DNA of 64,000 bases from a virus (Duplodnaviria > Heunggongvirae > Uroviricota > Caudoviricetes). The stretch is taken from positions 11,687 to 75,686 of the IMG/VR virus record IMGVR_UViG_3300047564_003701; one strand, given 5' to 3'. Positions 1,375-63,085 of this stretch are shown in pieces. The first letter of the stretch is position 1, and the number at the start of each line of letters is the position of its first letter. The position numbers were made by a program, and so were the translations under genes. A model generated the notes under the pieces. The model saw nothing but the letters and a program-made list of their open reading frames with translations, did not search any database and was not told where the DNA came from.

Positions 1375-3309
1375 TTATTGCCCTTGTGTTACAGTAATGG
1401 CTGCACAACTGGCCTGAGCACAGTTATGTGTTATAGAGTAAAACTGTTGAGTGCCGCCTGTTTGCGTAGCGGTAATTGAAGTAGCCCCACCGGTCAATGT
1501 AATATTAGCCATATGACCTACAGAGCCAGTCTGTGTAATGTCAACAGTCTTGGTACCGCCGCTGAGAGAAATTTCAGAATAATGATTTCCAGTACCACTT
1601 TGATTTACGGTTAAACTATTTGATGCATTATTCACTGTAGCTAATATACCTTTAGCACCACCGGTTCCGGATTGAGTTAAATTTGTAGTATTGCCATTTC
1701 CAGAAATAGTTAATTCTATATAATTAGTAGTGGTAGCCCCGGATGAAGATTGTGTTATAGTAGTTGTATTATTTGATCCTGTAAGATCAATTTCTGCATA
1801 ATTTTTATTGCCTGTCTGTTGAACTGTGGCAACATTATAGCTTCCTATCTGTTCTACAATAACTCTATTTCCGTTTTGCTGTGACCATATATTGGCTCTA
1901 TTGGCAAATCCTGTATTGGCAGCAAACGCATCTGTAGAGCAAGTTGAACTATTAGGACACGCTGGCGCAGTTGATCCTCCTGTAGTAGGAGCACTCGATC
2001 CAGCGTTAGGTGCGATAGGTCCAAAGGTTTGTCCGTTAAGGGTAGTAGAACCTTGTAAATCGTCGACTAACAAAATAGGACTCAATGCTGTGTCTCCAAG
2101 ATTAAAACTTGAGAATCCTAATATGTAATCTCCGCTTACTGGAACAGTAATGGTCGCTAACTGCCAACCTGTTGATCCATAACTGTCTGTGGCATAGTTT
2201 CCTGTTCCGGGATTGGTAAATCCTAATAATGCATATCTCTTAGTTTCGTTGTTTAACACAGGTATTTTTGTCGGGTCACTAGAATGAATTAAAGTCATAA
2301 TACTTCCATCATTAAATGGTGTATAGTCCGTACTCATATATTGCCAAGCGATGACATATGTTTTACCTGATTCAAGTGCAACAGTTCGTTTAGCCCACGA
2401 AGCATTAGTAGGTGAGCTGTTGCCTCCTAATCCAGTAAGATAATTTCTAATGTTAGTTATTTCTGTTGTAGTTAATCCTAATGAGGTCATAGCAGGATCA
2501 AAATTAGGACTGTCACCACCGGCTTGAATGACCATCATATACGTTCCGTATGGCGTAACTGACCAAGACTTGCCGCCGCCAGGTTGATAATTTGTCATTC
2601 CTTTTGATGTATTAACACCGTCGCCGTTATCGCTCCAGCCTGAGGTTTTTTCTGTGCCTGTACCGTTACTGATAGTCCAGTTAGCAGTAGTTCCTGATTC
2701 AAAACCTAAATTAGGGTTGTTGGTGTTAGGACTTACAGGTCCGCTGGAAGATGTCGGTGTTGATGTTTGAGAACTTGGTGTAACGGTAGCAGTTTGACCT
2801 GAACTCAAAGGAACTGTAGAGTAAGTTGCATCGGCATAGGTGTTGGCCTGAGCGATTGTAGGGTTAAGGGTACCAGTCCAAGACACACCCGATGTTCCAC
2901 TCATACCACTACTACCGCTAAACAGTTGTCCTGTGTTATTGTCACTGCCTACAAAGAAAAAATAGTCAGGACCCATATTAACGATCTTACCGTTACCTAG
3001 TGTAGATTTAACATTGCCTGCGCTGTCATATTGTTTTGCTGTATAAGGATACGAACTGTTTCCACTCAATTCAAACTTTACATAGTCACCAGAAGCCCAT
3101 TGCACTTGACCTGAAGTCCAGGGTATCTTGTAGGCCGTACCTGGCTGTTTGCTATAAATTTGGCAGGTGGTAGTATTCAGACACGAGTTAACATTCCATT
3201 GACTGTCTGCAATTTGATATTGTCCAAATTTGATATCAGTTAGGTCTGCGCGAACTGTCGTAGACAAAAAAATTAAAATAAGAAATAAAAGTTTTTTTAT
3301 CTGTTCCAT
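1375..3309 (-). CDS. large secreted Ser/Thr/Asn/Gly-rich protein with C-terminal curlin-like repeats
   Basis: Signal peptide (MEQIKKLLFLILIFLSTTVRA). The C-terminal ~170 aa is tandem ~22-aa repeats of the form N.TTITQSG.GN / SLTVNQSGTGN / VDITQTGS.GH, matching the curlin repeat pattern (S-x5-Q-x-G-x-x-N). There is a central lectin-like Gly/Trp-rich region. Confidence 0.6.
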   Translation of the reverse strand: MEQIKKLLFLILIFLSTTVRADLTDIKFGQYQIADSQWNVNSCLNTTTCQIYSKQPGTAYKIPWTSGQVQWASGDYVKFELSGNSSYPYTAKQYDSAGNVKSTLGNGKIVNMGPDYFFFVGSDNNTGQLFSGSSGMSGTSGVSWTGTLNPTIAQANTYADATYSTVPLSSGQTATVTPSSQTSTPTSSSGPVSPNTNNPNLGFESGTTANWTISNGTGTEKTSGWSDNGDGVNTSKGMTNYQPGGGKSWSVTPYGTYMMVIQAGGDSPNFDPAMTSLGLTTTEITNIRNYLTGLGGNSSPTNASWAKRTVALESGKTYVIAWQYMSTDYTPFNDGSIMTLIHSSDPTKIPVLNNETKRYALLGFTNPGTGNYATDSYGSTGWQLATITVPVSGDYILGFSSFNLGDTALSPILLVDDLQGSTTLNGQTFGPIAPNAGSSAPTTGGSTAPACPNSSTCSTDAFAANTGFANRANIWSQQNGNRVIVEQIGSYNVATVQQTGNKNYAEIDLTGSNNTTTITQSSSGATTTNYIELTISGNGNTTNLTQSGTGGAKGILATVNNASNSLTVNQSGTGNHYSEISLSGGTKTVDITQTGSVGHMANITLTGGATSITATQTGGTQQFYSITHNCAQASCAAITVTQGQ

Positions 3310-4397
3310 TGTCTTACCGTCACTACGTTACCATTAGCACCGCTACCGACTTGACGTTGACTAACGTCAACATTGTTGACTGAAATGTTATAGGTAGTTG
3401 TGTCAGTAGTTTCTAATGATCTAATGTGTATCACATTACCTCTTAAAGGATCAACGTGTTCGTACCAATTATATCCTTTTTCATTTCCGCAACTGGTAAA
3501 TGGCCAACAAGGATTGCCTGCTGTCTGTTCAGTAGACCCAACCTTTGTTGTTCCTATTTCCCCAGATAGTGCTCTTTGTATATTCCTGTCCGAATTGCCT
3601 TCTCTATCTTTTCGTGCCACTTCGTCATTGTTATCTCTCGCTGCTTTTCTTTCGTCATCGTTAGCACGACTCCTATCTTTTCGTTCTTCTTTCTTTTGAT
3701 CTCTTTCGGCAACAGCTTTAACTACCTGCTCGGGTTTCTTTAATGATCCTTCACCGTAGGCATTCATCACGCTAGGATCAACTTGAACAGGGGGCAAAGG
3801 AGATTCTTGATGACTAACAGCATAGGTAGCTAAAAATGGACTATCCATACTGACTTTTCCTGCAGTAGTAGTTACATCTATAGCACCACATACACAGTTT
3901 CCTGGTAATTCCACCCGTTGTGCATCACGATCGTCTTTACAACTAGGTAATAGTACTACAGTGCTTCTACCAAGTTCGTCTACGGTCATGGCAAAGTCTG
4001 TTCCTCTCACAGCTATGGCGGCTGTTGGAGTTTTTATATTAACGTTCTGAGCAGAATTTTTAGCTATAGCACCCGAAGCCATTCGGACTGTCCCTAACGC
4101 CACTTTCATAGAACTCTTAGAAGCTCCGCCTTTAGGATCATAGACAAAGTCATCTATAATAAGTTTACTGTTTTCAGTTATTTTTGCTGTGCTGTTATCT
4201 GAAAAAGTGATCGTGAGTTTTGTATTTGATCCGACACTGACAGTGTCATTTGATTCTATCACAGAATCTTTCGATGCTTTGATAGATTTACTACCTCTTT
4301 TAATTTCAACGGCTGTGCCCTGGAGCTCAGTTATTTTGCCTATGTTGGCTTGAGCCCCAGATGCAATCAATAATAGAACCAGCCATAAATGTTTCAT
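3297..4397 (-). CDS. secreted FecR-domain protein with highly charged linker and C-terminal curlin-like repeat
   Basis: Signal peptide. 'ITFSDNSTAKITENSKLII...IAVRGTDFAMTV...VVLL' fits the FecR fold signature. KE/RD-rich segment. The C-terminus 'VDVSQRQVGSGANGNVVTVRQWN' resembles a curlin R repeat. Confidence 0.5.
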   Translation of the reverse strand: MKHLWLVLLLIASGAQANIGKITELQGTAVEIKRGSKSIKASKDSVIESNDTVSVGSNTKLTITFSDNSTAKITENSKLIIDDFVYDPKGGASKSSMKVALGTVRMASGAIAKNSAQNVNIKTPTAAIAVRGTDFAMTVDELGRSTVVLLPSCKDDRDAQRVELPGNCVCGAIDVTTTAGKVSMDSPFLATYAVSHQESPLPPVQVDPSVMNAYGEGSLKKPEQVVKAVAERDQKKEERKDRSRANDDERKAARDNNDEVARKDREGNSDRNIQRALSGEIGTTKVGSTEQTAGNPCWPFTSCGNEKGYNWYEHVDPLRGNVIHIRSLETTDTTTYNISVNNVDVSQRQVGSGANGNVVTVRQWNR

Positions 4398-5080
4398 TAG
4401 TTTCCTGTGGTTACAGTTACAGCATTGCTGTTACCAGTTGTGACTATGTTTACTGTTGTATTAACTGATCCGCTCTGTGTCACAGAATGTGTGTTAGAAG
4501 TTCCAGTTACAGCAGCCATTAATGAATGTCCTAGACCTGCACTGGCTCCTGCCATAGAGCTAGTGAATGTATTGCTGTCTCCTAGGATAGTGATACTGCT
4601 GGTAGAATTATTTGTTAATATAGACTGTGTAACAGTATTGTTATCTCCAGTAATACTCAACGTATTTGCAATGCTACTTCCTTTTATTGTGCTAGTAACA
4701 GTATTGCTGTCTCCAGCGATTGTCATAGTGCTAGTTACGTTGGTACAGGCTGTGGTACCATCGCCACAGGTAAAGGTTATTTGATTAGTATCACCTGTGA
4801 CAGTTTTTGTAATCGTATTACCATTACCTACTACAGTATAATCTATGATGTTGCCATCGCCAGTTTGACTGGCTGTTAATGTGTTTGTGCTTCCGGTTAT
4901 TTTACTTTGGTTATTAAGACCGCTGTTTCCTACTCGGTTGGTGCTGCCTACCTGAGTAATTGTTACAGTGTTAGAACTACCTGCTTGTTCTATATAAACT
5001 GTGTTGTTAGCGTATGCTCCTGAACCCCAAAACATAGCCGCCATAATGAAGGCCATTTTACCATAATTATTTTTAATCAT
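4397..5080 (-). CDS. csgA: curlin (CsgA/CsgB-like) amyloid subunit
   Basis: Signal peptide followed by at least 8 imperfect repeats (SNTVTITQVGSTN, TNTLTASQTGDGN, GNTITKTVTGDTN, SNTHSVTQSGSVN ...) with the S/N-x-T-x-T-x-Q-x-G-x-x-N curlin periodicity. Lies immediately downstream of csgG. Confidence 0.6.
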   Translation of the reverse strand: MIKNNYGKMAFIMAAMFWGSGAYANNTVYIEQAGSSNTVTITQVGSTNRVGNSGLNNQSKITGSTNTLTASQTGDGNIIDYTVVGNGNTITKTVTGDTNQITFTCGDGTTACTNVTSTMTIAGDSNTVTSTIKGSSIANTLSITGDNNTVTQSILTNNSTSSITILGDSNTFTSSMAGASAGLGHSLMAAVTGTSNTHSVTQSGSVNTTVNIVTTGNSNAVTVTTGN

Positions 5081-5154
5081 TTTTCGCTCCTTGGTACTGT
5101 TATTGTTATTATTGTACCTTATTTTTTAAAGAATCCAACCCTATTTGGTTCTTT

Positions 5155-6072
5155 TTATTTTGTTTTAACTGATTCTCCTCCAGTATTTTTTCCGTCATCG
5201 GACTTAGGTACTGGGGGTGTCGCTTCGGATTCGATTTTGGATGTGGTGTTTTTTTGAACCAACTCATCTTTTTTCTCCTCTGATTTATAAGACCAATGGC
5301 CTTTCTTTTCTCCCTCACGAATCAATTCTATCACTGCTGCATGAATCGCTAATTGAATAGCCTTATTCATTGATTCGTTCGTGGCAGATCCTGTTTCTAA
5401 TTCTAATGCTTTAGTGCCTGCTTCATAAAATCTTAAAACACCAGCCTTGTCTTGGAAACTGTAAACACTCTTAGAAATATTAACTACAGTTAGTACTTCA
5501 CCGGTAGATACTGATACTGCTCTAAGACTAATTGTAACTTCGTCTTGTCTGTATTCTGTGCTAGCCCCAATGCCTAATAATCTAGCTCCGGAACCACCAC
5601 TCATTGTGTTACTATCATAGCCTATGATACCACCTTCGAGTATCATTCCAGCGAACAACATAGGTGGTAAAGGTTGTGCTTTATCACCTTGATACAGTTC
5701 TCTCATCTGACGTATTAGTTGTCTTTCTTTGATAAGATTATCTAATCCGCCTCTTTCGAGAACTTTAAACCATTTACCGCTGCCTACTTCCTGTAGACTT
5801 TTCACAAGGTATGCATCTGCTCCTTGAGTCACAGCAGAGCTTAGACTTGCGATATTTTGACTAGCCTTACGTTGGCCAGTCATATCTCTAAAATTATAGA
5901 CTGCTACAGGTATAGATCCGCTTTGAGGTTCTTTTAGATTTGATTCAGCTTTAAGAGCTGGTTTTGTTACTTTGGGATCATCGAAGCTACGAACAGCATT
6001 ACCTACTGTTCCGCAACCTGCTAAAAATAATGCCAAAGCCAGGGGTGTTAATTTAATTAAGGTGCTAGCCAT
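5155..6072 (-). CDS. csgG: curli secretion channel lipoprotein CsgG
   Basis: Lipobox LAGCGT. Long collinear similarity to E. coli CsgG (VAVYNFRDMTGQ..., IKERQLIRQ..., MILEGGIIGYDSNTMSGGSGARLLGIGASTEYRQDEVTISLRAVSVSTGEVL). Has an extra K/E/S/P-rich C-terminal tail. Confidence 0.8.
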   Translation of the reverse strand: MASTLIKLTPLALALFLAGCGTVGNAVRSFDDPKVTKPALKAESNLKEPQSGSIPVAVYNFRDMTGQRKASQNIASLSSAVTQGADAYLVKSLQEVGSGKWFKVLERGGLDNLIKERQLIRQMRELYQGDKAQPLPPMLFAGMILEGGIIGYDSNTMSGGSGARLLGIGASTEYRQDEVTISLRAVSVSTGEVLTVVNISKSVYSFQDKAGVLRFYEAGTKALELETGSATNESMNKAIQLAIHAAVIELIREGEKKGHWSYKSEEKKDELVQKNTTSKIESEATPPVPKSDDGKNTGGESVKTK

Positions 6073-6515
6073 CCGAAATCTCCAATTGGTACTGTCATTG
6101 TTGTTACATTTCCGTTTTCATCTCTTATGGTAATCTCTATCAGACTACCTGCCTTGGTGTAGGTAATTGTACCACCGTTGAACGCAAATGTTCCGGATGC
6201 TTGGGTGCCTTGCCCCTCAAATAATTTTTCAGTGATTTGTCTTGCTAATTCGTTATAAACACGACTTTCTAAGTTTGCAACGAATTTGGCCATAGTCGTA
6301 TTTTTAGCATCTTGTTCTGCTTTTAAAGCATCTGCTTTTTTTTCTGCAGCAATAGCTAATTTACGACTGAGTTCTTGACCGTAAATGGTCAATGCATGAC
6401 TGGAATATCCTACTCCAGAAAATGATGGACTGTTGAATTGATGGACAAGTTCAGCAGACTGACTTGCCGTCGATAAGGATAAAAATATCCCTAAAGATAC
6501 TAACGTTTTCTTCAT
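6057..6515 (-). CDS. csgF: curli assembly component CsgF
   Basis: Signal peptide, then 'AELVHQFNSPSFSGVGYSS', which matches the conserved mature N-terminus of CsgF (TFQFRNPNFGG) that plugs the CsgG pore. Length of ~150 aa. Overlaps the csgG start, consistent with translational coupling. Confidence 0.65.
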   Translation of the reverse strand: MKKTLVSLGIFLSLSTASQSAELVHQFNSPSFSGVGYSSHALTIYGQELSRKLAIAAEKKADALKAEQDAKNTTMAKFVANLESRVYNELARQITEKLFEGQGTQASGTFAFNGGTITYTKAGSLIEITIRDENGNVTTMTVPIGDFGWLAP

Positions 6516-6967: not shown

Positions 6968-7645
6968 CTAAATTTCAGGAAAAAGGCAGTCCTGTATGAA
7001 AATCCTTACATCTTCCTGATTTAAACCTAAACTAGCCATAACTTTAGGAGTATGTGGATTCATTTTTTGATTTTGAGCGTAATAGTTTTGCTCAAAAGTA
7101 GCATCTGCTACTTTATTATTGGTTTCTCCTACTGTTTCTACGTAATGGTTTATTAGTATATGTGCTAGACTTTCAATTTGAGATAATTCAGACTCGTCGC
7201 TGACATTTCCAGCAGCTACCATATTTGAACTAAAAATACGCTGTGCCCAATCTGGAAGATCTCGTTTTTTGATCCAATCGTATCTACTGACTTCTTCGGC
7301 GAAGTATTGATTCATAGGGTGATTACGATCTGTGGTTGGACTATAATCTATGAAACAGCCTGTGATCTTATTTTTTCCTGCGATAACATCAAAACCAAAA
7401 ATGGGCGCCGGGTTATGGATATGAGGAAATACACAACAGTGCATCATCCAGAGGCCCTTTGTGGATCGGGCATCGACTACGTCAATGTGAGCTCTACGAT
7501 AATTACCACTAGTCCATACCCTGTTTACCCAACCCGGCTGATTGAAACGTTCCATCCCTGGTTCAAATGATTCGATCCCAGATTCGTTAAATTTTTTAGT
7601 TAATAGATTCTGTATCTCTATCAGTTTCGACCATACCGCAGACAT
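6968..7645 (-). CDS. pebS: ferredoxin-dependent bilin reductase (PebS/PebA/PcyA family), phage PebS-like
   Basis: Sequence pattern of the FDBR family (WTSGNYRRAHIDVVD..., HCCVFPHIHNPAPIFGFDVIAG...). Sits one gene away from a heme oxygenase, as in cyanophage pebS-ho1 pairs. Confidence 0.65.
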   Translation of the reverse strand: MSAVWSKLIEIQNLLTKKFNESGIESFEPGMERFNQPGWVNRVWTSGNYRRAHIDVVDARSTKGLWMMHCCVFPHIHNPAPIFGFDVIAGKNKITGCFIDYSPTTDRNHPMNQYFAEEVSRYDWIKKRDLPDWAQRIFSSNMVAAGNVSDESELSQIESLAHILINHYVETVGETNNKVADATFEQNYYAQNQKMNPHTPKVMASLGLNQEDVRIFIQDCLFPEI

Positions 7646-8932
7646 TTAGTACCTATATGTTTCTAATTTATAAGGACCATCGACTTCAACATTAATGTAT
7701 GCAGCCTGATTAACAGTTAAATTGGTTAACGTGGCACCAATCTGATCTAAATGCAATCTGGCAACCTTCTCATCTAACTTTTTAGGAAGTAGATATAGTT
7801 TTCCAATTTCGTATTTGTCAGGATTATTGAATAAATCGATCTGTGCTAATGCTTGATTAGTAAAACTGTTACTCATAACATAGCTAGGGTGACCGGTGGC
7901 ACAACCTAGATTTACCAGTCTGCCTTTGGCTAGAACTATAATTCTTTTTCCGTCAGGAAAAATTACGTGATCGACCTGCGGTTTGATTTCATCCCATACG
8001 CAGTTTTTTAAACTAGCAATATCAATTTCACTGTCAAAATGTCCTATGTTGCACACAATAGAATTGTTTTTCATTCTAGACATATGATTGTAAGTTATGA
8101 CATCTATGTTTCCTGTGGCTGTGACAAAAATGTCTGCTTTGTCTGCTGCATACTCCATGGTCACTACTTTATAACCTTCCATAGCAGCCTGCAACGCACA
8201 GATAGGATCAACTTCTGTAATCCATACTTGGGCCGACAGAGCTCGGAGAGACTGTGCAGAACCTTTGCCTACATCTCCATAGCCACATACTACCGCTATC
8301 TTGCCTGCTATCATTACATCAGTGGCTCTCTTGATTGAGTCAACTAGACTTTCGCGGCAACCGTATAAGTTATCGAATTTTGATTTCGTTACACTATCGT
8401 TGACATTGATAGCTCTGAGATGCAGTGTTCCTTTAGAAATCCTCTCCAACAGTTTATGGATGCCGGTTGTGGTTTCTTCAGTTACGCCTATGATATCTTT
8501 TAATAAATCGGGATACTTGTCGTGTACAAAGGCTGTTAGATCGTGACCGTCGTCTAAAAGCATATTTGGTTTCCAGTTATTTGGTCCTGATATTGTTTGT
8601 TCTATACACCACCAATATTCTTCTTCGGTCTCGCCTTTCCAAGCGAATACTGGAATACCTTTAGAAGCCAATGCTGCCGCTGCATGATCTTGTGTTGAAA
8701 AGATATTACAACTAGACCATCTTACCTCTGCTCCTAAATCTATAAGAGTTTCTATTAGAACAGCAGTCTGCACAGTCATATGTAGACTACCTGCGATTCT
8801 TGCTCCCTTTAGAGGAAACTTATTTTTATATTCTTTTTTAATCGCCATTAATCCGGGCATTTCTGTTTCGGCGATCGCTATTTCTTTTCTTCCCCAGTCA
8901 GCTAACTGTATGTCTGCGATTTTATAATCCAT
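7646..8932 (-). CDS. ahcY: S-adenosyl-L-homocysteine hydrolase
   Basis: Full-length match to AhcY, including [30 protein letters not shown] and the NAD-binding [15 protein letters not shown]. Confidence 0.9.
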
Positions 8933-8933
8933 T

Positions 8934-9473
8934 TTATTCCTTATTCAAATCTTGCATAATTTTTATTGCCCATTCAAAGGCTACACGAGCTTCGTCACCT
9001 AAGTCATCTGTTAGCTCTGCACGTATCTGTTCCTTGAGTTTTTCTGGATCTTTAAACTTGTAAAAACGTCCTTGTCCAGGTACACGTTTGGCAATCATTT
9101 GGCCGCCATATAGATCTCCCATATGACGACAATAAAGATGTGCCTTGATAAGATGTTTTCTTTCTGGGTCATTGATCAGTTCTAACAGATAATTATGGTA
9201 TCCGATAGTAGACGGTAACCATTTAAAATCGTGATCTTTTCCAGCTAGTTCGATAAAATCTTGATAGATCGGCCAGGTCCTTTCAATGTCCGGGAGGCTG
9301 GCAAAATTACCTAGTATTTTGTTACCCATTTCGATAGGTTGATAAACCAAAACCATTTGCCATAGGTAGTTGGCGTAGTCCTCTTTAGATATAGATCCGC
9401 TTAAAAGTTTTTTAGCAAACTCTGTACGTTCTGCATCTGAATGTAAATCTTTAGTTATTTCTCGTAAGCTCAT
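8934..9473 (-). CDS. ho1: heme oxygenase
   Basis: [24 protein letters not shown]... and [22 protein letters not shown] align with the HO-1 proximal and distal helix motifs (LKEATKEVHTQAEN..., [20 protein letters not shown]). Confidence 0.75.
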
Positions 9474-23243: not shown

Positions 23244-23384
23244 ATCTTCTCCTTGTGTGTGTTTGAAAACTTCAATAACTCTGTATTGTATGTGTATATT
23301 ATATATCCTATTAAAATGCAAAATCAATAGATTTTTTCTAAATATTTTTTTATGACGATCATAGGAAAAATCAATAACGAAAAG

Positions 23385-23416
23385 AAAGCGGCCCGAAGGC
23401 CGCTTTACTATTTTGG
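23385..23416. terminator. intrinsic terminator (hairpin GCGGCC-cgaa-GGCCGC with flanking T/A runs)
   Basis: On the minus strand the hairpin is followed by TTTCTTTTCGTT. Positioned at the 3' end of the tmRNA coding piece. Confidence 0.5.
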
Positions 23417-23740
23417 TTGACAAGGCATAGTTGCCCCGGAGTGGCAGTTTCTTAGGCTGCTAGAGCGAATCTACCTTCATTAGCTGCACCAACGGTGTTG
23501 CCTGTGAAGTTCAATGCGCCAAACTCAAATGTATCTGCGTTTGCATTTACGTTTTTTGCTTCTGCGACCGGGTTACTCCAATCCTACGGGTTCTGCTTTC
23601 CCGAGCTGTCCACTCTGTTACTCTTTGCCCTGTCGAAACCATGTACACCCCCAACGCAGGATACTTTTAAAATATCCTCCGGTGGAGGTGGGGAGATTCG
23701 AACTCCCGTCCAGAACACTTTTCTCTTTGCTTCATACAGC
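23405..23740 (-). ncRNA. ssrA: circularly permuted (two-piece, alphaproteobacterial-type) tmRNA, ssrA
   Basis: Minus strand, acceptor piece: T-arm GGGAG-TTCGAAT-CTCCC, then 3' acceptor strand CACCTCC, discriminator A and CC (plus 23681..23707). A short intervening hairpin follows (GGATA..TATCC). Coding piece begins GGGGGTG-TACAT-GGTTTCGACAGGG at plus 23652. Its first 7 nt pair perfectly with the 3' acceptor strand, including G3:U70. An internal frame ends GCAGCTAATGAAGGTAGATTCGCTCTAGCAGCC-TAA, i.e. AANEGRFALAA-stop (23452..23487). The terminator follows. Confidence 0.75.
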
Positions 23741-23748
23741 AATAACTT

Positions 23749-24159
23749 TTATTTAATCCAACCTATCTTTTCGCCAGCATCTTTGCGACGATCATGTTCT
23801 TCTGGAGTATTTGGATATCTCCAGGCCCAAACAGCGACCAATGCCATAAACACTGCTGTTGAAATAATACCGATAAGTTTTACCCCACCTGTCCACATTA
23901 GTATAAGGCTTAATGACATCATTGTCAACATCAAATAACGTAGTTTTTGAGGAAAAACTCTTTTTTCGCTCCAATTGGTTAAAAATGGTCCGAAAATCTT
24001 ATGATTGTAAATCCAACGATGCATACGCTCACTGCCCTTAGAAAAACAATAAGCTGAAAATACAATAAACGGGCTGTAAGGAATTCCAGGTGTGATCAAT
24101 CCGATATAGGCCAGTCCTAAACTAATAAATCCTAAAACATTCCAAAATAATTTTTTCAT
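23749..24159 (-). CDS. YbaN/DUF454-family inner membrane protein
   Basis: MKKLFWNVLGFISLGLAYIGLITPGIPYSPFIVFSAYCFSKGSERMHRW parallels E. coli YbaN. Start taken at the internal ATG at 24159. Confidence 0.6.
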   Translation of the reverse strand: MKKLFWNVLGFISLGLAYIGLITPGIPYSPFIVFSAYCFSKGSERMHRWIYNHKIFGPFLTNWSEKRVFPQKLRYLMLTMMSLSLILMWTGGVKLIGIISTAVFMALVAVWAWRYPNTPEEHDRRKDAGEKIGWIK

Positions 24160-24161
24160 TT

Positions 24162-48029: not shown

Positions 48030-48518
48030 TTATTTCTTTCGTCCTTGGCAATGTGCTTTTTGGCTGAAACCTTTGGGATTATTGCAATTTATACTTTTTT
48101 TGTATTTCTTGCTCCAAGATTCTTTGTGCATACCAAAGTTACCTTGCATACGCACCTGCTCTATTTCATTCTTTTCAGTATACCTATCTACATAGAGAGC
48201 CAATTTAAAATCTAATATAGTCAGTCCTTTGACATCGAACGTAGATGTCTTTACAGTGACTTCTGCGACATCCTGTGTGACTTCTGCGAAGTGGTCCATC
48301 TTTTCTGATAAGCGATTTATAAACTCGACAAATTCTAGAGCATGACGATGATCTTTGGCCACATACTTGGCCTGTAGAGTCCTGTGATCCAACATTTCCC
48401 AGTCAGGTAGAAACTGTGATTTGATATCGTCTAGATCGCTGTCGTTAGGCACAAAATCTTCTATGTCTTTGGATCTAAATTTGCCTTCTGCGATGTCGAT
48501 AAGTTCTCTCATGTTCAT
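48030..48518 (-). CDS. pterin-4a-carbinolamine dehydratase (PCD/DCoH)-like protein with basic C-terminal tail
   Basis: PCD-like core topology (…FVEFINRL…VKTSTFDVKGLTILDFKLALYVD), but the canonical HHP motif is replaced. Confidence 0.35.
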   Translation of the reverse strand: MNMRELIDIAEGKFRSKDIEDFVPNDSDLDDIKSQFLPDWEMLDHRTLQAKYVAKDHRHALEFVEFINRLSEKMDHFAEVTQDVAEVTVKTSTFDVKGLTILDFKLALYVDRYTEKNEIEQVRMQGNFGMHKESWSKKYKKSINCNNPKGFSQKAHCQGRKK

Positions 48519-48940
48519 TCTGTTCGATCCTTGTCATCTATGGCGCCACCTGTGACCCACGCTGTACAACTACGGTCGCCAGCGCATTTAAAATGTAAGA
48601 AGTTGCAGTAACCTAAGTCTGCCTTGTGTATTGTAGCCATAGCATCTGCATCCTTTTCATCGCCCTTGATACCCGATTCTATACAAGCCCACATCTTGTC
48701 TGAAACATCAAAGGCTGCACAATTACCACACAGCATAGTCTTAGCAGTCTTTTCTGTAATGTTCCAACGCTTGGCAGCATCCTTCCAGTACGACTCTGGC
48801 TCATCTGGATTAGCAGGACCGTAGTGATATTCATCTATAGCCTTCTGACGATTCTTTAGATTAACATCTATGTCGTAGGTAGCAATAGGACAGCCTTTGT
48901 TGGCTGCTTCTACTATGTTGATATATTTTCTGTAGATCAT
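48515..48940 (-). CDS. hypothetical Cys-containing protein
   Basis: 141-aa ORF. Confidence 0.4.
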   Translation of the reverse strand: MIYRKYINIVEAANKGCPIATYDIDVNLKNRQKAIDEYHYGPANPDEPESYWKDAAKRWNITEKTAKTMLCGNCAAFDVSDKMWACIESGIKGDEKDADAMATIHKADLGYCNFLHFKCAGDRSCTAWVTGGAIDDKDRTE

Positions 48941-50316
48941 CTCTGTTCAATCCAAGTCATTGTAGCCACAGCATTTTTGTTAGCGTTTCTAGCCGCAATG
49001 GCTAGAGTTAGTGTGTCGCTGACTGTGCCCAAACTGCTGCGTCCAATCTGATAGACTGTGTCAGTGTCTATCCTAATAGGGCCGCCACCACTGTTGGCAG
49101 TGATCATACCACTGTCTAATGAAGAGCCATCTGTGATAGCACCTGTGCTGGTATAGTTGTATTGCGTGAACGCATTAGTGTCGGGATGATCTGTCCAAGT
49201 TCCGTTGACTGTGGCATTACGTATAAGTTTATAGTAGATGTCAGTGTTGTCCAATGTGCTGGCTTGGAAGTATGTGGGAATCACAATGCCTGTCAGTGCT
49301 GTGCTTTTCATTCTAATGCTGAGCACAGGGTAAAATGTGTTAGCGGAAGGTAGGTTAATACCAGTTAGTGGTGTTAGTATGTTTTCAGCAATACCTAGTT
49401 TTTCCACACTACCTTCTACTAATAGACTATTTGATCCTTGCCACATATAGTGTGTGCCGGCAGCACCGCCAAAGTTTTCAATCTCTAGTCTAATGGGTAA
49501 GAAAGGTGTTTTACTCCACGGACTCTTAAGTCTGTTGCCGTTGTTGACTACGTGTATTACACGGGGGAATCCGTTGATCACCCAGCTGAATACAATCTGT
49601 CCAGCACCATACCACTCATATTCAACACTAATAACTTGTTGTGCGTCAGGTACTGCGGTGATGCCGCTTGGACCAGTGCCATCTAACTTATCGCCATTCC
49701 AATCTTTGCGATAGATTCTCTCTACAGTAGGAGTAGCACCATCGCTGTTGATTACCACTACAGCATATTGTGGCTCGCCTGTGTCTGGATCCACTGTGCC
49801 ACAATCTTCAAAATAAAATCCATCACTGCCGTCATACATTCCTAGTCTGCGTCTAACTCCAGTTACGGGCATTTCAAATCTAACAGCAAAAGAAATGTTC
49901 TGTGCTCTACCTGGAGTATAGCGTTGTACGTTGCGAGTCTGTCGTATAACTTTAGATCCTACAGTGCTAGAGACGCTCATAGCAATTTGGCTTAGGGTAG
50001 CGTCAAATACTGCTGAGCCACCTGATGTAGTACTTTCATCCCAGACATCTGTTTCTTTACCGTATTGGAATGTGTTAAAGAATATAGTTTCCTGTGTCTG
50101 GACTTTGAGACGACCTTTGCTATCAACCGTAGATATGACTCCATTGCCGGGTCCAGATCCTGTTAAGTCTGCCTGTACTCTTATTATTGGCTCGCCGACA
50201 CCATTGTAGTCCATTGCACGATGCAATTCTTGTAGATTAGGATCGCTAGCGTGTGTGTAGTTGGTGGTGTCCCAAGGTTGTTCGCTGGGGTTTAATCGTT
50301 GTCCGTTAAATGCCAT
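48937..50316 (-). CDS. probable virion structural protein (capsid/baseplate candidate)
   Basis: 459 aa, beta-rich, in a block with other structural-looking genes. No specific motif. Confidence 0.4.
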   Translation of the reverse strand: MAFNGQRLNPSEQPWDTTNYTHASDPNLQELHRAMDYNGVGEPIIRVQADLTGSGPGNGVISTVDSKGRLKVQTQETIFFNTFQYGKETDVWDESTTSGGSAVFDATLSQIAMSVSSTVGSKVIRQTRNVQRYTPGRAQNISFAVRFEMPVTGVRRRLGMYDGSDGFYFEDCGTVDPDTGEPQYAVVVINSDGATPTVERIYRKDWNGDKLDGTGPSGITAVPDAQQVISVEYEWYGAGQIVFSWVINGFPRVIHVVNNGNRLKSPWSKTPFLPIRLEIENFGGAAGTHYMWQGSNSLLVEGSVEKLGIAENILTPLTGINLPSANTFYPVLSIRMKSTALTGIVIPTYFQASTLDNTDIYYKLIRNATVNGTWTDHPDTNAFTQYNYTSTGAITDGSSLDSGMITANSGGGPIRIDTDTVYQIGRSSLGTVSDTLTLAIAARNANKNAVATMTWIEQR

Positions 50317-50319
50317 TGA

Positions 50320-50739
50320 TTAACTCCAAGGACGTCCGTCAACAAGTCCGCCTACGTTAGGATTATCTACTACTGTATTTCCTACATATTTTGTAGGTAG
50401 ATCATCTCTATTATACACATCGGGTCTACCAGTTCTTGCTCTGTTTACTTTGGCTATCTCTAGTTTTTGTATCTGTCGATCTTCTTTAGTACCCACTTGA
50501 TTCGGAGTACACAGTATAGTGTCTCCATCTACTATGCCCATAGCAGTTAGTGTAGTCGAACTATCACCATAAACTACGTCATTGATCGCAGGATTGTTTA
50601 ATAAACTAATCTTATAGTAATCCGTTGGCAATCCTTCGTCAGAAGCGATAGCAGAGATCAGTTGATCGATAGTAACAGTTAATGCCACTGTCACTGAATC
50701 TTTGACGCTACTTAAGCCCCAATAATTAATTGTTGCCAT
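50320..50739 (-). CDS. hypothetical protein
   Basis: ORF. Confidence 0.4.
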   Translation of the reverse strand: MATINYWGLSSVKDSVTVALTVTIDQLISAIASDEGLPTDYYKISLLNNPAINDVVYGDSSTTLTAMGIVDGDTILCTPNQVGTKEDRQIQKLEIAKVNRARTGRPDVYNRDDLPTKYVGNTVVDNPNVGGLVDGRPWS

Positions 50740-51140
50740 TAGTTGTCTCCGTAAATTCTAAAGCTGTCGCCACGGATGTCTTTTGTGTGTTTTGGGGCAT
50801 TCATACCGCCGCCTGCTGCTGCGGTTACTGCATCCATAGCAGCATATTCTTCTTTAGGAGTATTTGAATATTCAGTTGGTTCGCCTTGATCAGCTAGGTC
50901 CACGATTTGACGGAATCTGCGGATATCGTCCGGAGCGAACTCTTCTTCTGCTGGGTCACCTTGCTTGTTCATAAATCCTACAATCTTGTCGTAGTCTGCC
51001 ATAGTCACAGGACCGTTGGCGCTCATAGCTATCACTGCCTGAGCAACATCGTGTATGTCCGCGTCTTGCTTTATATCTTCTCTACTTAGTTCCAGTAGTC
51101 TTATGAATAGGGGTACATCTAGTTGTACGATATCTGCCAT
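50739..51140 (-). CDS. hypothetical acidic protein
   Basis: ORF. Confidence 0.4.
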   Translation of the reverse strand: MADIVQLDVPLFIRLLELSREDIKQDADIHDVAQAVIAMSANGPVTMADYDKIVGFMNKQGDPAEEEFAPDDIRRFRQIVDLADQGEPTEYSNTPKEEYAAMDAVTAAAGGGMNAPKHTKDIRGDSFRIYGDN

Positions 51141-51184
51141 AGTTCAATCCTCGATCACATATTTAGCGGTTAAATACTGTTACG

Positions 51185-52390
51185 ATGATTAACAAAGAAC
51201 CCTTTAAAAAACTCATATTAGACCTTAAAGAATCTGGGAAATATCGTGTTTTCAACGATATTATCCGCGAGCGAGGTGACTTTCCCAAAGCTATCTGGTA
51301 CGGTCCCTACAATATTAAAACCATAGTAAACTGGTGCTCAAATGACTATTTGGGTATGGGCCAACACAAAGTGGTCTTAGACGCTATGCACACAGCCTTA
51401 GATCAAACAGGATCTGGATCTGGAGGCACTCGCAACATTGGTGGAACCAGCCACTATCACGTGGCCTTAGAACATGAGCTAGCAATGTTACATAACAAGA
51501 GCAGAGCCTTGCTGTTTAGTTCAGCTTATGTGGCCAACGAGTGGACTATCATAGCCTTGAGCAAGATCATTCCTAACATACAGTTTATTTCTGACAGCAA
51601 CAATCATAACAGCCTTATTGTTGGCATACAACATTCTCGGGCTCCTAAACAAGTTTTCAAGCATAACGATCTACAAGACCTGGAAGATAAGTTAGTACAC
51701 AGCAAACTGGCTGGGCACACTCCTTGTATCGTTTTTGAATCAGTCTACAGTATGGATGGCGATGTAAGTCCTATTAAACAAATCTGCGATCTAGCAGACA
51801 AGTATCAGGCTATAACTTACATAGACGAAGTACACGCGGTAGGACTCTATGGAACCCACGGTGGTGGGAAGGTTGAAGAGCTTGGGCTAGAATCCCGTAT
51901 TGACATAGTCAATGGTACATTAGGGAAAGCCTATGGAGTCCAAGGTGGCTATATTGCTGCCGATGCTGATGTCGTTGATGCCATCCGTTCTGTAGCTGCT
52001 GGATTTATCTTTACTACGTCAATGAGTCCTGTGGCCTGTGCCGGTGCATTGGCTGCGGTCAAGTGGTTAAAGGATCATAACGAGATTCGTGAGAAACATC
52101 AAGAACGTGCTAACAAGTTAAAGAAATTACTGAAAGAGAACGAACTGCCTGTGATGGGATGTTCTACTACACATATCGTTCCGTTACTGGTAGGAGAGGC
52201 TAAAAGGTGTAAAGCCATGAGCGATCTTTTACTCAATGAGTTCAACATCTATGTACAGGCGATTAACTATCCAACGGTAGATGTAGGTACAGAAAGATTA
52301 CGATTTGCACCTACACCATACCACGATGATTCTATGATGAGTGATTTGATTGTTGCTCTAAAGTCTGCGTATCACCAGGTGCAAGTCTAA
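51185..52390 (+). CDS. hemA: 5-aminolevulinate synthase
   Basis: Near-collinear match to alphaproteobacterial/mitochondrial ALAS: [24 protein letters not shown]-lysine region ([11 protein letters not shown]... TLGKA) and C-terminal RLRF. Confidence 0.9.
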
Positions 52391-52727
52391 AACGATCCTC
52401 AACATAATCCGCAGTCCCGACTTCTAAGATCACTGAATTAGGATGCAGAGCTTCGATCTGATGCGGGCTGAGCTCTGCGAAATCTGCGGTCTTACCTTCT
52501 TCTAGAATAGCTTCTTTGATTTGACCAGTGGCCACATCTATGTAAGTTACCTTGAATCTCCCGGCATTGACAAACCAGCTCTTTCTTTTTTCTTTATGGA
52601 ATACCATACTGGTTTTGGCACCTACCTTGGTAAACACCAGTAGTTTGCCGCAGTAACTTTCATTGTTACTCCATATGATTTCAAATCCCCAGCCCTTGTC
52701 TATTTTTCCTGCTTTCTGTAGGTTCAT
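52332..52727 (-). CDS. cupin-domain protein
   Basis: Small beta-barrel pattern (GWGFEIIW...GKLLVF). Its 3' end overlaps the hemA 3' end convergently by 59 nt. Confidence 0.45.
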
Positions 52728-53314
52728 GGTCTTTTCTCTATGATTTTATCTACGAGCCCGTAGTCTAATGCTTCTTGTGCTGACATAAACTTATCTCTTT
52801 CCATATCCGCAGAAAACATTGCAAATGTTTTATCTTTGCTGTTATGCTTGACATAGATCTCAGTGAGATTCTTTTTCATTTTTAAAATTTCTTCAGCCTG
52901 TATCTGAATGTCTGTGGCCTGCCCACGAGCTCCTCCGCTGGGCTGATGAATCATATGACGAGCGTTAGGCAGCATATGTCTTTTACCTGCTGCACCTGCC
53001 TGGGCTAGCAATGATCCCATAGAACAGGCCTGCCCCATTACATAGGTGGCGACATCTGGTTTGATAAACTGCATCGTATCATAGATGCTCATACCTGCTG
53101 TGACTACGCCACCTGGACTGTTTATGAACAGACTAATGTCCTTGTCTGGATTTTCACTTTCTAAAAATAACAGTTGGGCTACGACCAAATTCGCCATATA
53201 ATCTTCTATAGGGCCGTTCAACATAATTATTCTTTCTTTGAGCAGTCTACTGTAGATATCAAAAGCACGCTCGCCTTTTGATGTAGACTCAATAACCATT
53301 GGTACCAATGCCAT
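52724..53314 (-). CDS. clpP: ATP-dependent Clp protease proteolytic subunit ClpP
   Basis: Catalytic Ser (GQACSMGS), His (HQP) and Asp. Full ClpP length. Confidence 0.9.
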
Positions 53315-55418: not shown

Positions 55419-56360
55419 ATGACTACACTTATTCAAGGTGACTGCCTAGAAGTCGCCGACCAAATCGCCGACGGATCTATAGACTTTGTTCTCACCGATC
55501 CTCCCTATAACATCAGCAATGATGGTGCGAAGCCTGTTTGGATTGATCCGGAAACAGGCGAAAACAAAAATACCATCCATAGCCAAAAGTTCAGCGAAAA
55601 CTTTGAACAGGATTGGGATGCCGTTACACACGATCAGTTTCTGTTACAGTTAGAGCAATGGAGTAAGCTGTGGCATAGTAAACTGCGCAAAGGCGGTAGT
55701 TTTGCCGTATTCATCTCCGATCAGTACATCAGCTATCTTTGGAAGACAATGGCGGACGTCGGCCTTGAACCCAAGCGTGTCTGGACTTGGAAGAAGCCTG
55801 CGGCTGTGCCTTTCAATCGAGGAGTTAATCCTGTTAGTGGTTGTGAATACATCTTATGGGGTATCAAACCTGGCGGTAAGAGAACATTCAATTCTGACAC
55901 AGACCTTAATTCGATCGTAGACAGATATGCTGTGGCTGATAAGGTGTCTAGTATTATGTACAGGGAAGTCAAAGACGGACTAGGCAGTCGCAGCCTAGAC
56001 AGCATCTTTGCTGCTGCTCAAAAAGAAGCAGAAGCAATGATAAAGAGTAGAAAACAGTCTGGCAGCAAGGTACAGGCTATTGTACCAAATACTATTACCT
56101 ACAGTGGAGGGTTAGGCGGCAAGATACACCCGACCCAAAAACCTACAGAGATTTTAGAATACTTTATCGAGCTGTGTTCCAATCCAGGCGACATAATTTT
56201 GGACACATTCGCAGGCAGTGGAAGTACAGGAATCGCTGCCAAGAACACGGGAAGAAACTGCATTTTGGTTGAACGAGATCCAAAAATGTTTGCCAAAATG
56301 AGCGAACGCTTTGATACAACATCCGGCCTCAACACCAATCTTTTCATCGAATCTGATTGA
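55419..56360 (+). CDS. DNA methyltransferase (N6-adenine/N4-cytosine, beta-class)
   Basis: DPPY catalytic motif near the N-terminus and AdoMet motif I (FAGSGSTG) near the C-terminus. Confidence 0.85.
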   Translation: MTTLIQGDCLEVADQIADGSIDFVLTDPPYNISNDGAKPVWIDPETGENKNTIHSQKFSENFEQDWDAVTHDQFLLQLEQWSKLWHSKLRKGGSFAVFISDQYISYLWKTMADVGLEPKRVWTWKKPAAVPFNRGVNPVSGCEYILWGIKPGGKRTFNSDTDLNSIVDRYAVADKVSSIMYREVKDGLGSRSLDSIFAAAQKEAEAMIKSRKQSGSKVQAIVPNTITYSGGLGGKIHPTQKPTEILEYFIELCSNPGDIILDTFAGSGSTGIAAKNTGRNCILVERDPKMFAKMSERFDTTSGLNTNLFIESD

Positions 56361-58361: not shown

Positions 58362-58825
58362 AAAAGTTATTCTATATCAAAGAGGGCCGTAAGTATGTGC
58401 CCGTGGCAGAATATGATAACGAACTTTTGGATAGCTTTCCCAAAGGAGACCATCTTGTGTCTGTGTACCCAGGAGGTTCTAGTCGTCGCTTTAAGATTGA
58501 TCCGGCCTATGCTCCGATGATCGCTGCCGCTCGTGTTGCTGAGGACGAGATCTGTCGAGCTATCTCTAAAGCCGCTGAACTACGTCCTCCACGTACTCCA
58601 ATTACTCCTAAGCAGAAAAAAGCCTGGGAAGCATTGGCTGCGGCATTCGGTGACGAGCTTTGTACCTTACAGGGATTGAGCATCCGCGATTGTGCCGAAG
58701 CAGGTGTTAAAGCTATGCAAGAAGAAGCAGAAAAATTACTAAAACACCAAAGTGTTCGTAAGGCATACGAGCACTTCCAACTAATGTGCGAATTGGTAAA
58801 AGAAAATGAATGTCACAAATCATAA
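58358..58825 (+). CDS. hypothetical protein
   Basis: ATGA-coupled ORF. Confidence 0.4.
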   Translation: MKKLFYIKEGRKYVPVAEYDNELLDSFPKGDHLVSVYPGGSSRRFKIDPAYAPMIAAARVAEDEICRAISKAAELRPPRTPITPKQKKAWEALAAAFGDELCTLQGLSIRDCAEAGVKAMQEEAEKLLKHQSVRKAYEHFQLMCELVKENECHKS

Positions 58826-59501
58826 AGGTCCTGTCCTTAGTGTTTTACAGGAAATTTTTGGTAGAGGGGACGACAGCCCTCCCCATCCTAATTTTCATCA
58901 GGCCGTAAAGGTCATAGAATTTCCCACCGTACATAAAAAAGATAATGAACCGGTAAATTTAATTTGGCCTGATATTCAACGCGGTCCGTGGATTGCCGGC
59001 GGTGCTGCTCTGCGATGGTACCAGAATCAACCCGTAGGAGACAGCGATATCGATGTGTTCTGCGCCAATGCTCGACAGGCCGCTGATGTCATAAGTCGAA
59101 TCAAGAGCTATGGTCGACACTCTGTCAAGTTTGAAAGTGAAAATGCACTGACATTGGATTATTGGTCTAAGGAAAATTACAGCGATCGATGGACTATTCA
59201 AATTATCACCCGACGATATTTCAACAGTCTAGAAGAAGTGATCAATAATTTTGATATCACTGTCTGCGAAGTCGGGACAGCAGGCAATGAATGGTTGTTA
59301 GGTCCATTCACTGCTCGCGATATTCGAGAGCGCAATTTGAATTTTAAATTGCCTTTACAACCAGATGCTATGAAAAGATTAGTCAAATATTGGGCCTACG
59401 GGTATCGGCCGGTTGAAGGTACCATAGAGGCTATTCAAAATAACCCGATCGCTAAATGGCAGTTTAGTGCTGAAACCGAGGACTATCAAAATGCGTTCTG
59501 A
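58806..59501 (+). CDS. putative nucleotidyltransferase (Pol-beta superfamily)
   Basis: GGAALRWYQNQPVGDSDIDVF fits the GG/GS...D.D NTase signature. Confidence 0.4.
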   Translation: MNVTNHKGPVLSVLQEIFGRGDDSPPHPNFHQAVKVIEFPTVHKKDNEPVNLIWPDIQRGPWIAGGAALRWYQNQPVGDSDIDVFCANARQAADVISRIKSYGRHSVKFESENALTLDYWSKENYSDRWTIQIITRRYFNSLEEVINNFDITVCEVGTAGNEWLLGPFTARDIRERNLNFKLPLQPDAMKRLVKYWAYGYRPVEGTIEAIQNNPIAKWQFSAETEDYQNAF

Positions 59502-62188: not shown

Positions 62189-63082
62189 TCAACTGACTCG
62201 TTTAGTAGCGCAAATATCAAATCCGTTGGCACATTGATCCTTTTGACAGAGAATAGGATCTTTAGGCCAACGTATATTTTCTCCTAGTTTTCCCAAAGGA
62301 CCTCCCTGTCTACAGTGTCCTCTGTATATCACACCTTCGGCTGTGACTATGATCTGTTCTAGTCCGATATCGCACTGATGATCAACGAAACGATTTTGAT
62401 CGTCTAAGACTAATCGCATATACGATGTTTCTATTTTTTCGGATTCGGAATCTAAGATCAATCCTTTCTGTGTTCTGAATATTTCTAGTTGTTCTTTAGT
62501 GTAATCAACTACGAATCTGTTCCTGATAGGATCTTTAAACAGCATCTTTTTCCAAATCAACATCTTAGGCCATTTGCTTTTTAATCGATCTACGAACTCA
62601 TCTAATTCTTGCCATCTATCGGGTAACATATTCACTGTCACAGAAACTTTACAGGCAGTGTTGGCCAAAGTCCAATTGATCAGCAGCATCAGATGACTGA
62701 GTTGGCTGTGTTCTATATGTACGTTGACTTTGGCTTCGGCAAGGTAGGGAACGATGTCCTGCCAGGTTTCTAAATCTACGTTGAGATTAGTGCCGATTTT
62801 GTTGATCACTGACCTAGAATGTGTGTAGCTCAACAGATCAGGTAGATTATACCATTCTGTGACTTCACCACCTGTGTAAAATATCTCTAATTTTTTACCC
62901 AGACTTTGACTCTGTGCCAGGGCTTGATCTACGAAGTTTTCACAGTTTCGGATGTCGGGCAAAGGAAAGCTGCCATTTCGAATCACTGTGTGACAATAAC
63001 TGCAGGCCCAGGAGCAGTGGTTCATCAACCACCAGTCAATATAGAATTTACTGTGATCTCGCTGTGCGACTAGATTGGGCAT
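62189..63082 (-). CDS. radical SAM protein with C-terminal Cys-rich (SPASM/twitch-like) region
   Basis: CSWACSYC CxxxCxxC cluster near the N-terminus. C-terminal C..QGG...CQKDQCANGFDIC. Confidence 0.6.
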   Translation of the reverse strand: MPNLVAQRDHSKFYIDWWLMNHCSWACSYCHTVIRNGSFPLPDIRNCENFVDQALAQSQSLGKKLEIFYTGGEVTEWYNLPDLLSYTHSRSVINKIGTNLNVDLETWQDIVPYLAEAKVNVHIEHSQLSHLMLLINWTLANTACKVSVTVNMLPDRWQELDEFVDRLKSKWPKMLIWKKMLFKDPIRNRFVVDYTKEQLEIFRTQKGLILDSESEKIETSYMRLVLDDQNRFVDHQCDIGLEQIIVTAEGVIYRGHCRQGGPLGKLGENIRWPKDPILCQKDQCANGFDICATKRVS

Positions 63083-63085
63083 AGC

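Follow-up and report, generated by a model that had tools for sequence, protein, structure and literature searches.

An intact 5-aminolevulinate synthase gene in a large freshwater phage that also carries heme oxygenase and PcyX-type bilin reductase genes

Background

Why would a phage carry a gene for the formation of 5-aminolevulinate (5-ALA), the committed step from which all tetrapyrroles derive and one that is under tight regulation? The question is raised by a stretch of 64,000 nucleotides of a virus assigned to the Caudoviricetes (positions 11,687 to 75,686 of IMG/VR virus record IMGVR_UViG_3300047564_003701; the whole stretch is called the window here), in which one open reading frame (ORF), valaS, encodes a 5-aminolevulinate synthase (ALAS). 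A feedback-insensitive phage enzyme of this kind could take over the heme supply of the infected cell, and with a heme oxygenase (HemO) and a bilin reductase (PcyX) the phage could also govern heme breakdown and iron release. An earlier note, made from the letters of the window, had described the ORF as a full-length ALAS with all catalytic motifs and had suggested that, together with two heme-degrading genes elsewhere in the window, it gives the virus an entry point into heme metabolism as well as an exit branch.

The publication of viral ALAS in 2024 marked a notable discovery. Wegner et al. (Nat Commun 15:8783, PMC11480375) defined valaS in marine and freshwater phage contigs, where it is found in a full cassette, in a 'broken' cassette or alone. 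A viral valaS accompanied by hemO and a bilin reductase gene has thus already been described and experimentally tested, and the window is a further preserved freshwater example. What it contributes are small additions, namely a stable position next to cupin-like and ClpP genes, a conserved upstream motif in place of a Shine-Dalgarno element, an ahcY gene between hemO and pcyX, and hints of a non-alphaproteobacterial host; the overall picture is unchanged.

Identity of the enzyme

The valaS reading frame is intact (Table 1), and its product was compared with profile models of ALAS and of the related alpha-oxoamine synthases. The NCBIfam equivalog for 5-aminolevulinate synthase, TIGR01821, matched at 568.8 bits against a cutoff of 338.55, a margin of 230 bits, and the alignment was full-length (residues 6-400 on profile positions 6-398 of 402). 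The models of the paralogues remained below their cutoffs: 8-amino-7-oxononanoate synthase (AONS, BioF) scored 306.7 bits against 426.45, the two models of 2-amino-3-ketobutyrate CoA ligase (KBL) scored 304.7 against 460 and 242.5 against 493, and the BioF/Kbl-related and serine palmitoyltransferase (SPT) models also fell short. The Pfam domain of the product is Aminotran_1_2. Among PDB entries, the best matches were the bacterial ALAS 7x98 (3e-126) and the Rhodobacter capsulatus ALAS 2bwn (2e-124), both over residues 7-398, followed by human and yeast ALAS and then by KBL and AONS at 1e-57 or weaker. The boundaries of the ORF and its description as a full-length ALAS were thus both exact.

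A neighbour-joining tree was built from numpy distances, with 76 bootstrap replicates, on 135 non-identical sequences taken from the ALAS-like ORFs of 80 IMG/VR loci and 80 cellular loci together with R. capsulatus ALAS. All 76 replicates split the viral, cellular and R. capsulatus ALAS sequences from the remaining alpha-oxoamine synthases, and a viral ALAS clade, which includes a single bacterial sequence (L081, discussed below), was recovered equally often. The phylogeny against AONS and KBL that the earlier note had proposed therefore leaves the window protein within the ALAS clade. Apart from L081, the best cellular ALAS matches are at most 56% identical to it.

Active site, feedback residues and selection

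The residue map agrees with the claim that the catalytic motifs are all present, as the catalytic and substrate-binding residues are conserved, including the lysine and the succinyl-CoA-binding residues that the note had wished to see verified. The Schiff-base lysine for pyridoxal 5'-phosphate (PLP) is K248 (K248 also in R. capsulatus), and the PLP-binding residues are H141 (R. capsulatus H142), D214, H217, T245 and S189, all of which, like K248, are invariant across 59 viral-clade sequences. Both residues for the glycine carboxylate, N53 (N54) and R373 (R374), are present. The residues that discriminate ALAS, R21, T82 (T83), N84 (N85) and T278, are all of the ALAS type, whereas the same positions are K, V, F and N in all 50 non-ALAS members of the family. 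The roles in binding glycine, succinyl-CoA and PLP are those that we take, partly from general knowledge, to follow from work on the 2BWN structure; for N54, S189, R374 and K248 the 2BWN literature confirms them.

The residues associated with feedback inhibition by heme are different. The position of His342 (R. capsulatus numbering) is occupied by Arg341 in the window protein and by K, R, L or Q, never H, across the viral clade. The last cysteine of the window protein is C342, leaving a C-terminal tail free of cysteine; as the R. capsulatus sequence in the alignment covered residues 9-393, the loss of C400 was read from this tail. The window enzyme thus lacks the residues through which heme exerts feedback inhibition and would be predicted to be insensitive to it, in agreement with what has been proposed for vAlaS in the literature, namely an escape from such inhibition.

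Compared with viral relatives, the nonsynonymous divergence (dN) of valaS was 0.05-0.2, while synonymous sites were at or near saturation; wherever the ratio to synonymous divergence (dN/dS) could be computed it was 0.04-0.07. Such strong purifying selection indicates that valaS is kept as a working enzyme. Copies 67-93% identical were found on at least 89 IMG/VR contigs, including several of 138-147 kb and one of 280 kb, and more than 120 metagenome protein clusters are at least 85% identical to the window ALAS. Taken together, family membership, residue conservation and purifying selection show that valaS is an intact, full-length ALAS gene. We consider it very probable that it encodes a catalytically competent, PLP-dependent ALAS of the published vAlaS clade and is an auxiliary metabolic gene (AMG) of a large freshwater phage.

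Partner heme genes and proposed role

The earlier note had placed a heme oxygenase and a PebS-like bilin reductase at 7-9.5 kb. Both genes are there, but the reductase is of the PcyX type and the two are separated by ahcY (Table 1). Next to PcyX 5OWG, the best PDB match of the reductase was PcyA at about 4e-14, and no PebS chain was found at E <= 0.01; an identity as PebS was accordingly ruled out by sequence. In vHemO, we take 'DLHSDAE' to be the context of the proximal histidine, and we also recognise a 'GDLYGGQ' motif, in both cases from general knowledge of HO-1. The hemO-ahcY-bilin reductase arrangement is repeated in three independent freshwater contigs; no rationale was found for ahcY between hemO and pcyX. 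With valaS on the other strand, some 42 kb away from hemO and pcyX, the three genes form a 'broken cassette'. No further tetrapyrrole genes occur among the remaining annotated ORFs of the window, and no bilin-binding proteins (phytochrome, phycobiliprotein or BBAG) were detected in it.

Table 1. Features of the window discussed in the text (positions count from the first letter of the window)
Feature	Position	Strand	Remarks
Curli (type VIII secretion) cluster	1375..6515	-	CsgF, CsgG, 227-aa and 644-aa curlin-repeat proteins, FecR-like
Ferredoxin-dependent bilin reductase, PcyX type	6968..7645	-	PF05996 5e-14; PDB 5OWG PcyX 6e-70
S-adenosyl-L-homocysteine hydrolase (ahcY)	7646..8932	-	PF05221 1e-130, PF00670 8.5e-81; between hemO and reductase
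Heme oxygenase vHemO	8934..9473	-	PF01126 6.4e-21; PDB heme oxygenases ~1e-8
Permuted two-piece transfer-messenger RNA (tmRNA)	23361..23790	-	ARAGORN tag peptide ANADTFEFGALNFTGNTVGAANEGRFALAA
Virion structural protein	48937..50316		PHROG; ~53% identical to T4-like cyanomyophage virion proteins; 870 nt upstream of valaS
g133, divergent neighbour	50739..51140	-	133 aa; adjoins valaS in 56/81 related loci
Bipartite motif TATTTA-N4-TAAATA	51160..51176	.	in 44-bp divergent spacer g133(-)/valaS(+)
valaS, 5-aminolevulinate synthase	51185..52390	+	ATG start; 401 aa; stop included
Cupin-like protein	52332..52727	-	131 aa; phrog_7851 'cysteine dioxygenase', 5e-27; adjacent in 49/81 loci
ClpP protease subunit	52724..53314	-	PF00574 8.6e-82; two genes downstream of valaS; adjacent in 52/81 loci

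Beyond the right end of the window, at a distance of about 9 kb on a 121-kb GROS21-1 scaffold (L169 1-1673), a CobS-like AAA (AAA_5) gene and a CobT-like DUF2201 gene were observed, a nominal further link to tetrapyrrole metabolism. A similar gene is annotated as 'porphyrin biosynthesis CobS' in Pelagibacter phage HTVC008M, which also carries a ferrochelatase.

As an ALAS (EC 2.3.1.37), the enzyme would condense glycine and succinyl-CoA to 5-ALA, CoA and CO2, and during infection it would most likely feed 5-ALA to the downstream tetrapyrrole enzymes of the host. Heme and tetrapyrrole output might thereby be kept up or raised independently of the host, with a heme-insensitive vAlaS escaping host regulation. 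HemO would open heme to biliverdin and iron, and PcyX would reduce biliverdin to a bilin, so that entry into the heme pool and one way out of it would be under phage control. Activity of the window protein in vivo is to be expected from its homology to the tested CB_2 enzyme, and we infer a physiological benefit of valaS. The purposes proposed earlier fared unevenly: the genes for a route from heme to bilins and iron are present, but a supply of pigment for proteorhodopsin fails as a rationale, the chromophore of that protein being retinal and not a bilin. The more general idea of an entry point combined with an exit branch fits the published model of valaS acting with hemO and pcyA/X (PMC11480375).

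Gene neighbourhood and upstream motif

Tens of IMG/VR contigs keep the gene order g133(-)/valaS(+)/cupin(-)/ClpP(-)/HNH(+)/ligase(+), and the other neighbours of valaS are unassigned ORFs and genes for a cupin, an HNH endonuclease, a methyltransferase and a ligase. A location 'among structural genes and clpP', as first described, therefore holds for ClpP and only weakly for the structural setting, to which a single neighbour, the virion structural protein of Table 1, contributes. No Pfam or PHROG match was found for g133, which is hence without a family assignment, and a PDB sequence search with the cupin-like protein gave no meaningful match. The cupin-like gene is convergent with valaS, their 3' ends overlapping by 59 nt (52332-52390), and the same overlapping gene calls recur in public assemblies. 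As no terminator lies between the two genes, antisense or transcriptional interference is possible there.

In the spacer upstream of valaS, one TAAATA element faces each of the divergent genes, and the copy on the + strand ends 8 nt before the valaS ATG. Of 55 distinct sequences upstream of valaS in relatives, 46 contain the motif pair, with TAAATA placed 4-8 nt ahead of the ATG; a Shine-Dalgarno-like element occurs in only three of the 55, and none is found at the window valaS. Among these relatives the spacing between TATTTA and TAAATA varies from 1 to 6 nt while each half keeps the distance to its own gene, which speaks for two independent, opposed elements and not one operator. A palindromic operator of fixed spacing, such as the site of an iron or heme regulator, was considered and rejected on account of this variation.

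TAAATA is also enriched upstream of window genes in general, with 19 occurrences compared to 5.5 +/- 2.4 in shuffles. The same six letters make up the core sequence of T4-type late promoters (TATAAATA). The TATTTA/TAAATA pair may thus be a candidate for back-to-back T4-late-like promoters, from which transcription would be late and possibly leaderless. A scan for sigma-70 promoters and intrinsic terminators around valaS gave counts no better than shuffles, with no such promoter upstream on the + strand.

Viral genome and host

The 97 ORFs of the window (GC 41%) lie mostly on the - strand and are dense, short and mostly unannotated. No capsid, portal or terminase genes are located inside the window; a tail-spike-like protein is annotated in addition to the virion structural protein. 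Eleven of the 97 ORFs match Pelagibacter phage HTVC008M, among them five curli-cluster genes in the same order. Identical proteins in the same local order were found on GROS21-1 scaffolds in ENA (one of 121,362 bp), which belong to a German-lake (LIMNOS) data set, and in JGI freshwater samples. The virion structural and tail-spike proteins, the block collinear with HTVC008M, the 89 IMG/VR contigs and the GROS21-1 uncultivated virus genomes (UViGs) support the viral nature of the genome, and the window belongs to a large freshwater phage with a distant relationship to the pelagimyophage/Melnitz group. A query made by concatenating proteins into a 2,886-aa pseudo-protein, intended to locate the closest isolate, gave no information on lineage, its matches being dominated by the small subunit of ribonucleotide reductase (RNR).

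In a tblastn search of 50,697 GenBank phages, cyanophages included, ALAS found only matches of 34% identity or less, which were BioF/KBL-like and mostly host contamination; therefore, no deposited phage genome in that collection carries valaS. A megablast search of positions 40-60 kb of the window against the same phages gave no match, and PHROGs contain no family for ALAS. The valaS gene is still confined to uncultured phages.

The association of ALAS with alphaproteobacteria does not fix the host of this phage. One bacterial contig (L081; WNLJ01000010.1, 'Neisseriaceae bacterium PsAf') encodes at 3001-4188 an ALAS 69% identical to the window protein, which falls between two viral subgroups in the tree; its context is cellular-looking (a kinase, patatin, TolC-like and ABC-2 transporter genes). 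This copy may reflect a transfer from phage to bacterium, the recipient being of a lineage that would be expected to rely on the C5 pathway, or may be an artefact of the metagenome-assembled genome (MAG).

The tmRNA of the window was matched by the Rfam models beta_tmRNA (104.5 bits; gathering threshold 84) and tmRNA_permuted (105.5 bits; gathering threshold 47), and it overlaps the ORF calls at 23514-23756 (+) and the start of 23749-24231 (-). Its best match to a betaproteobacterial model may be a hint of the host and is treated as a lead only. Two-piece tmRNAs are known in Melnitz/pelagimyophage-like phages, and the Melnitz case shows that a phage tmRNA is unreliable for the host.

Alternative explanations

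Several points weigh against the reading of valaS as a working AMG that feeds heme synthesis. The case for the activity of this exact protein is one of homology, and its exact sequence is not in the alignment of Wegner et al. Whether it would supplement a native Shemin pathway or bypass a C5 pathway hinges on the identity of the host. What a phage gains by first building heme and then breaking it down is still unexplained in the literature (PMC11480375). The distance and the opposite strands of valaS and hemO/pcyX mean that their co-regulation is not evident. Regarding expression, about six of the 19 TAAATA cases in the window overlap an upstream TAA stop codon, which weakens the promoter reading, and neither a sigma-70-like promoter nor a terminator flanks valaS.

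A tentative variant, which we regard as possible but rather doubtful, is that valaS makes 5-ALA mainly for a purpose other than respiratory heme, whether for iron and a bilin (as signal, chromophore or antioxidant) through the phage's own HemO and PcyX, for corrinoid (B12) synthesis, or as a Shemin bypass in a C5 host, sparing glutamyl-tRNA. The presence of HemO and PcyX in the same genome would suit the first option and the CobS/CobT-like genes on the 121-kb scaffold the second, while the beta-type two-piece tmRNA and the occurrence of an ALAS of the viral clade on a betaproteobacterial contig hint at a non-alphaproteobacterial host. However, no bilin-binding protein was detected in the window, valaS is neither co-located nor co-oriented with hemO and pcyX, and the tmRNA is subject to the caution given above. 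Wegner et al. discuss such options for the purpose and leave them open (PMC11480375); as they are variants of purpose and not of mechanism, they are inseparable in silico. A more specific conjecture, which we think improbable, is that the host belongs to a non-alphaproteobacterial freshwater lineage using the C5 route (e.g., a betaproteobacterial one), that valaS would serve there as a foreign, heme-insensitive Shemin bypass and not just as a boost to a native pathway, with leaderless or nearly leaderless expression from the back-to-back TAAATA pair, and that the copy in the Neisseriaceae MAG would be the footprint of a phage-to-host transfer.

It is very unlikely that the ALAS gene is cellular, i.e., that it lies on a bacterial fragment, a mis-binned contig or a prophage flank and is not a phage AMG. 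The window does lack capsid, portal and terminase genes and encodes many 'cellular' functions (DnaK, ClpP/ClpS, AhcY, GMP reductase/IMP dehydrogenase (IMPDH), RNR and TerC), and the bacterial chromosome-like contig L081 carries its copy in a cellular context. Nevertheless, the T4-like virion protein, the tail-spike and the curli/cyclase block collinear with HTVC008M point to a phage, the ORFs are dense, short and mostly unannotated, the long IMG/VR contigs share the same neighbourhood, and GROS21-1 UViGs of the same GC content carry the same three genes (PMC11480375). The nesting of L081 within the viral clade in turn suggests transfer and not origin.

We also see scarcely any chance that valaS encodes a secondary-metabolism relative of ALAS of the 'cyclising' kind, such as makes the C5N unit in Streptomyces. 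Such paralogues match ALAS models, and a Streptomyces sequence (L104) falls in the ALAS super-clade; but L104 shows just 40% identity and diverges basally, well away from the viral sequences, the surroundings of valaS revealed no partner genes for an acyl-CoA ligase or an amide synthase, and a member of the same viral clade, CB_2, makes free 5-ALA and rescues an auxotroph (PMC11480375). Finally, that the protein is another alpha-oxoamine synthase (BioF, KBL or SPT) merely resembling ALAS is effectively refuted, since the shared fold and Aminotran_1_2 domain, the sizeable BioF and KBL scores and the BioF/KBL-like nature of the only GenBank phage matches stand against profile scores, PDB matches, bootstraps and discriminating residues that all identify an ALAS.

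Other features of the window

The curli cluster is collinear with gp014-gp018 of HTVC008M, and a CHASE2-guanylate cyclase gene just outside the window (L172 7815-9866) corresponds to gp019. By contrast, Zaragoza-Solas et al. (2020) reported the curli operon absent from their freshwater pelagimyophages, with CsgA/B missing, whereas the freshwater phage of the window has the cluster along with curlin-repeat candidates. A full proteostasis kit, all on the - strand, consists of DnaK (10765-12666; 64-65% identical to bacterial DnaK), Hsp20 (10089-10526), ClpS (9747-10046) and the ClpP of Table 1; contig L172 carries another ClpP-like gene immediately to the left of the window. Genes of the auxiliary type encode TerC, a protein of the GMP reductase/IMPDH family, a peroxiredoxin, a fatty-acid desaturase, a class II aldolase, a pterin-4a-carbinolamine dehydratase, a radical-SAM protein and an AlgH-like protein; the coordinates listed for this group are 374-1075, 13367-14386, 22686-23243, 38456-39777, 48030-48518 and 62189-63655. 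An N6/N4 DNA methyltransferase (55419-56360, +) and a protein matching Pfam Gad2 (58806-59501, +) are known from precomputed annotations on identical contigs. A 75-aa ORF (14399-14626, -) shows weak similarity to the ribosomal protein S21 gene of HTVC008M (34% over 41 aa, E 9e-6). The window also encodes a cell-wall hydrolase, a glycosyltransferase, both RNR subunits and a DNA ligase.

Comparison with known systems

The bacterial enzymes of R. capsulatus (2BWN) and of the Caulobacter type (7X98) align with the window protein over the same full length at about 1e-125 and have identical PLP, glycine and succinyl-CoA residues. The window enzyme differs from them in the Arg at the position of His342 and in the missing C-terminal Cys, and also in its setting, a phage genome in which the gene follows a phage-type motif and no Shine-Dalgarno element.

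Cyanophages with ho1, pebS and pcyA offer another likeness, in that a phage heme oxygenase and a four-electron bilin reductase act on host heme. The reductase of the window is of the PcyX type, unlike the cyanophage PebS, and no photosynthesis genes were found among the annotated window ORFs.

The closest counterpart is the published vAlaS group, which clusters apart from bacterial AlaS (about 55% identity to alphaproteobacterial enzymes) and has lost H342 and C400 (PMC11480375). In that study the vAlaS of CB_2, a freshwater homologue, complemented an E. coli 5-ALA auxotroph and the K250A exchange abolished complementation, and the GROS21-1 UViGs in its Supplementary Data 1 (179-325 kb, 40.7-41.7% GC) include ones with HemO, a bilin reductase and AlaS, marked 'Cassette? 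N' (PMC11480375). This configuration, three genes and no cassette, is that of the window. Over the N-terminal stretch that was compared, the window protein reaches identities of about 73% with CB_2 vAlaS and about 80% with GROS21-1 vAlaS, and it shares with the published proteins the clade, the loss of feedback residues and the co-occurrence with hemO and pcyA/X in freshwater GROS21-1 phages of about 41% GC. It differs from them in being absent from their alignment, in the 42 kb between valaS and hemO/pcyX and in the ahcY gene between the latter two. Neither the cupin/ClpP neighbourhood nor the TATTTA-N-TAAATA motif is mentioned in the first part of the results or in the discussion of Wegner et al., and text searches for 'ClpP' give 0 matches (PMC11480375).

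Among the IMG/VR loci fetched, only one (L079, 5973-8523) has a compact valaS-bilin reductase-HemO arrangement, located by gp13/14/15-like and terminase-like genes homologous to those of HTVC008M; its valaS belongs to a smaller, more divergent viral ALAS subgroup (67-69% identity). The cassette of marine pelagimyophages, hemO-pcyX-valaS next to gp13, likewise consists of the same three genes as the window, whereas in the lineage of the window, which comes from freshwater samples, these genes are dispersed.

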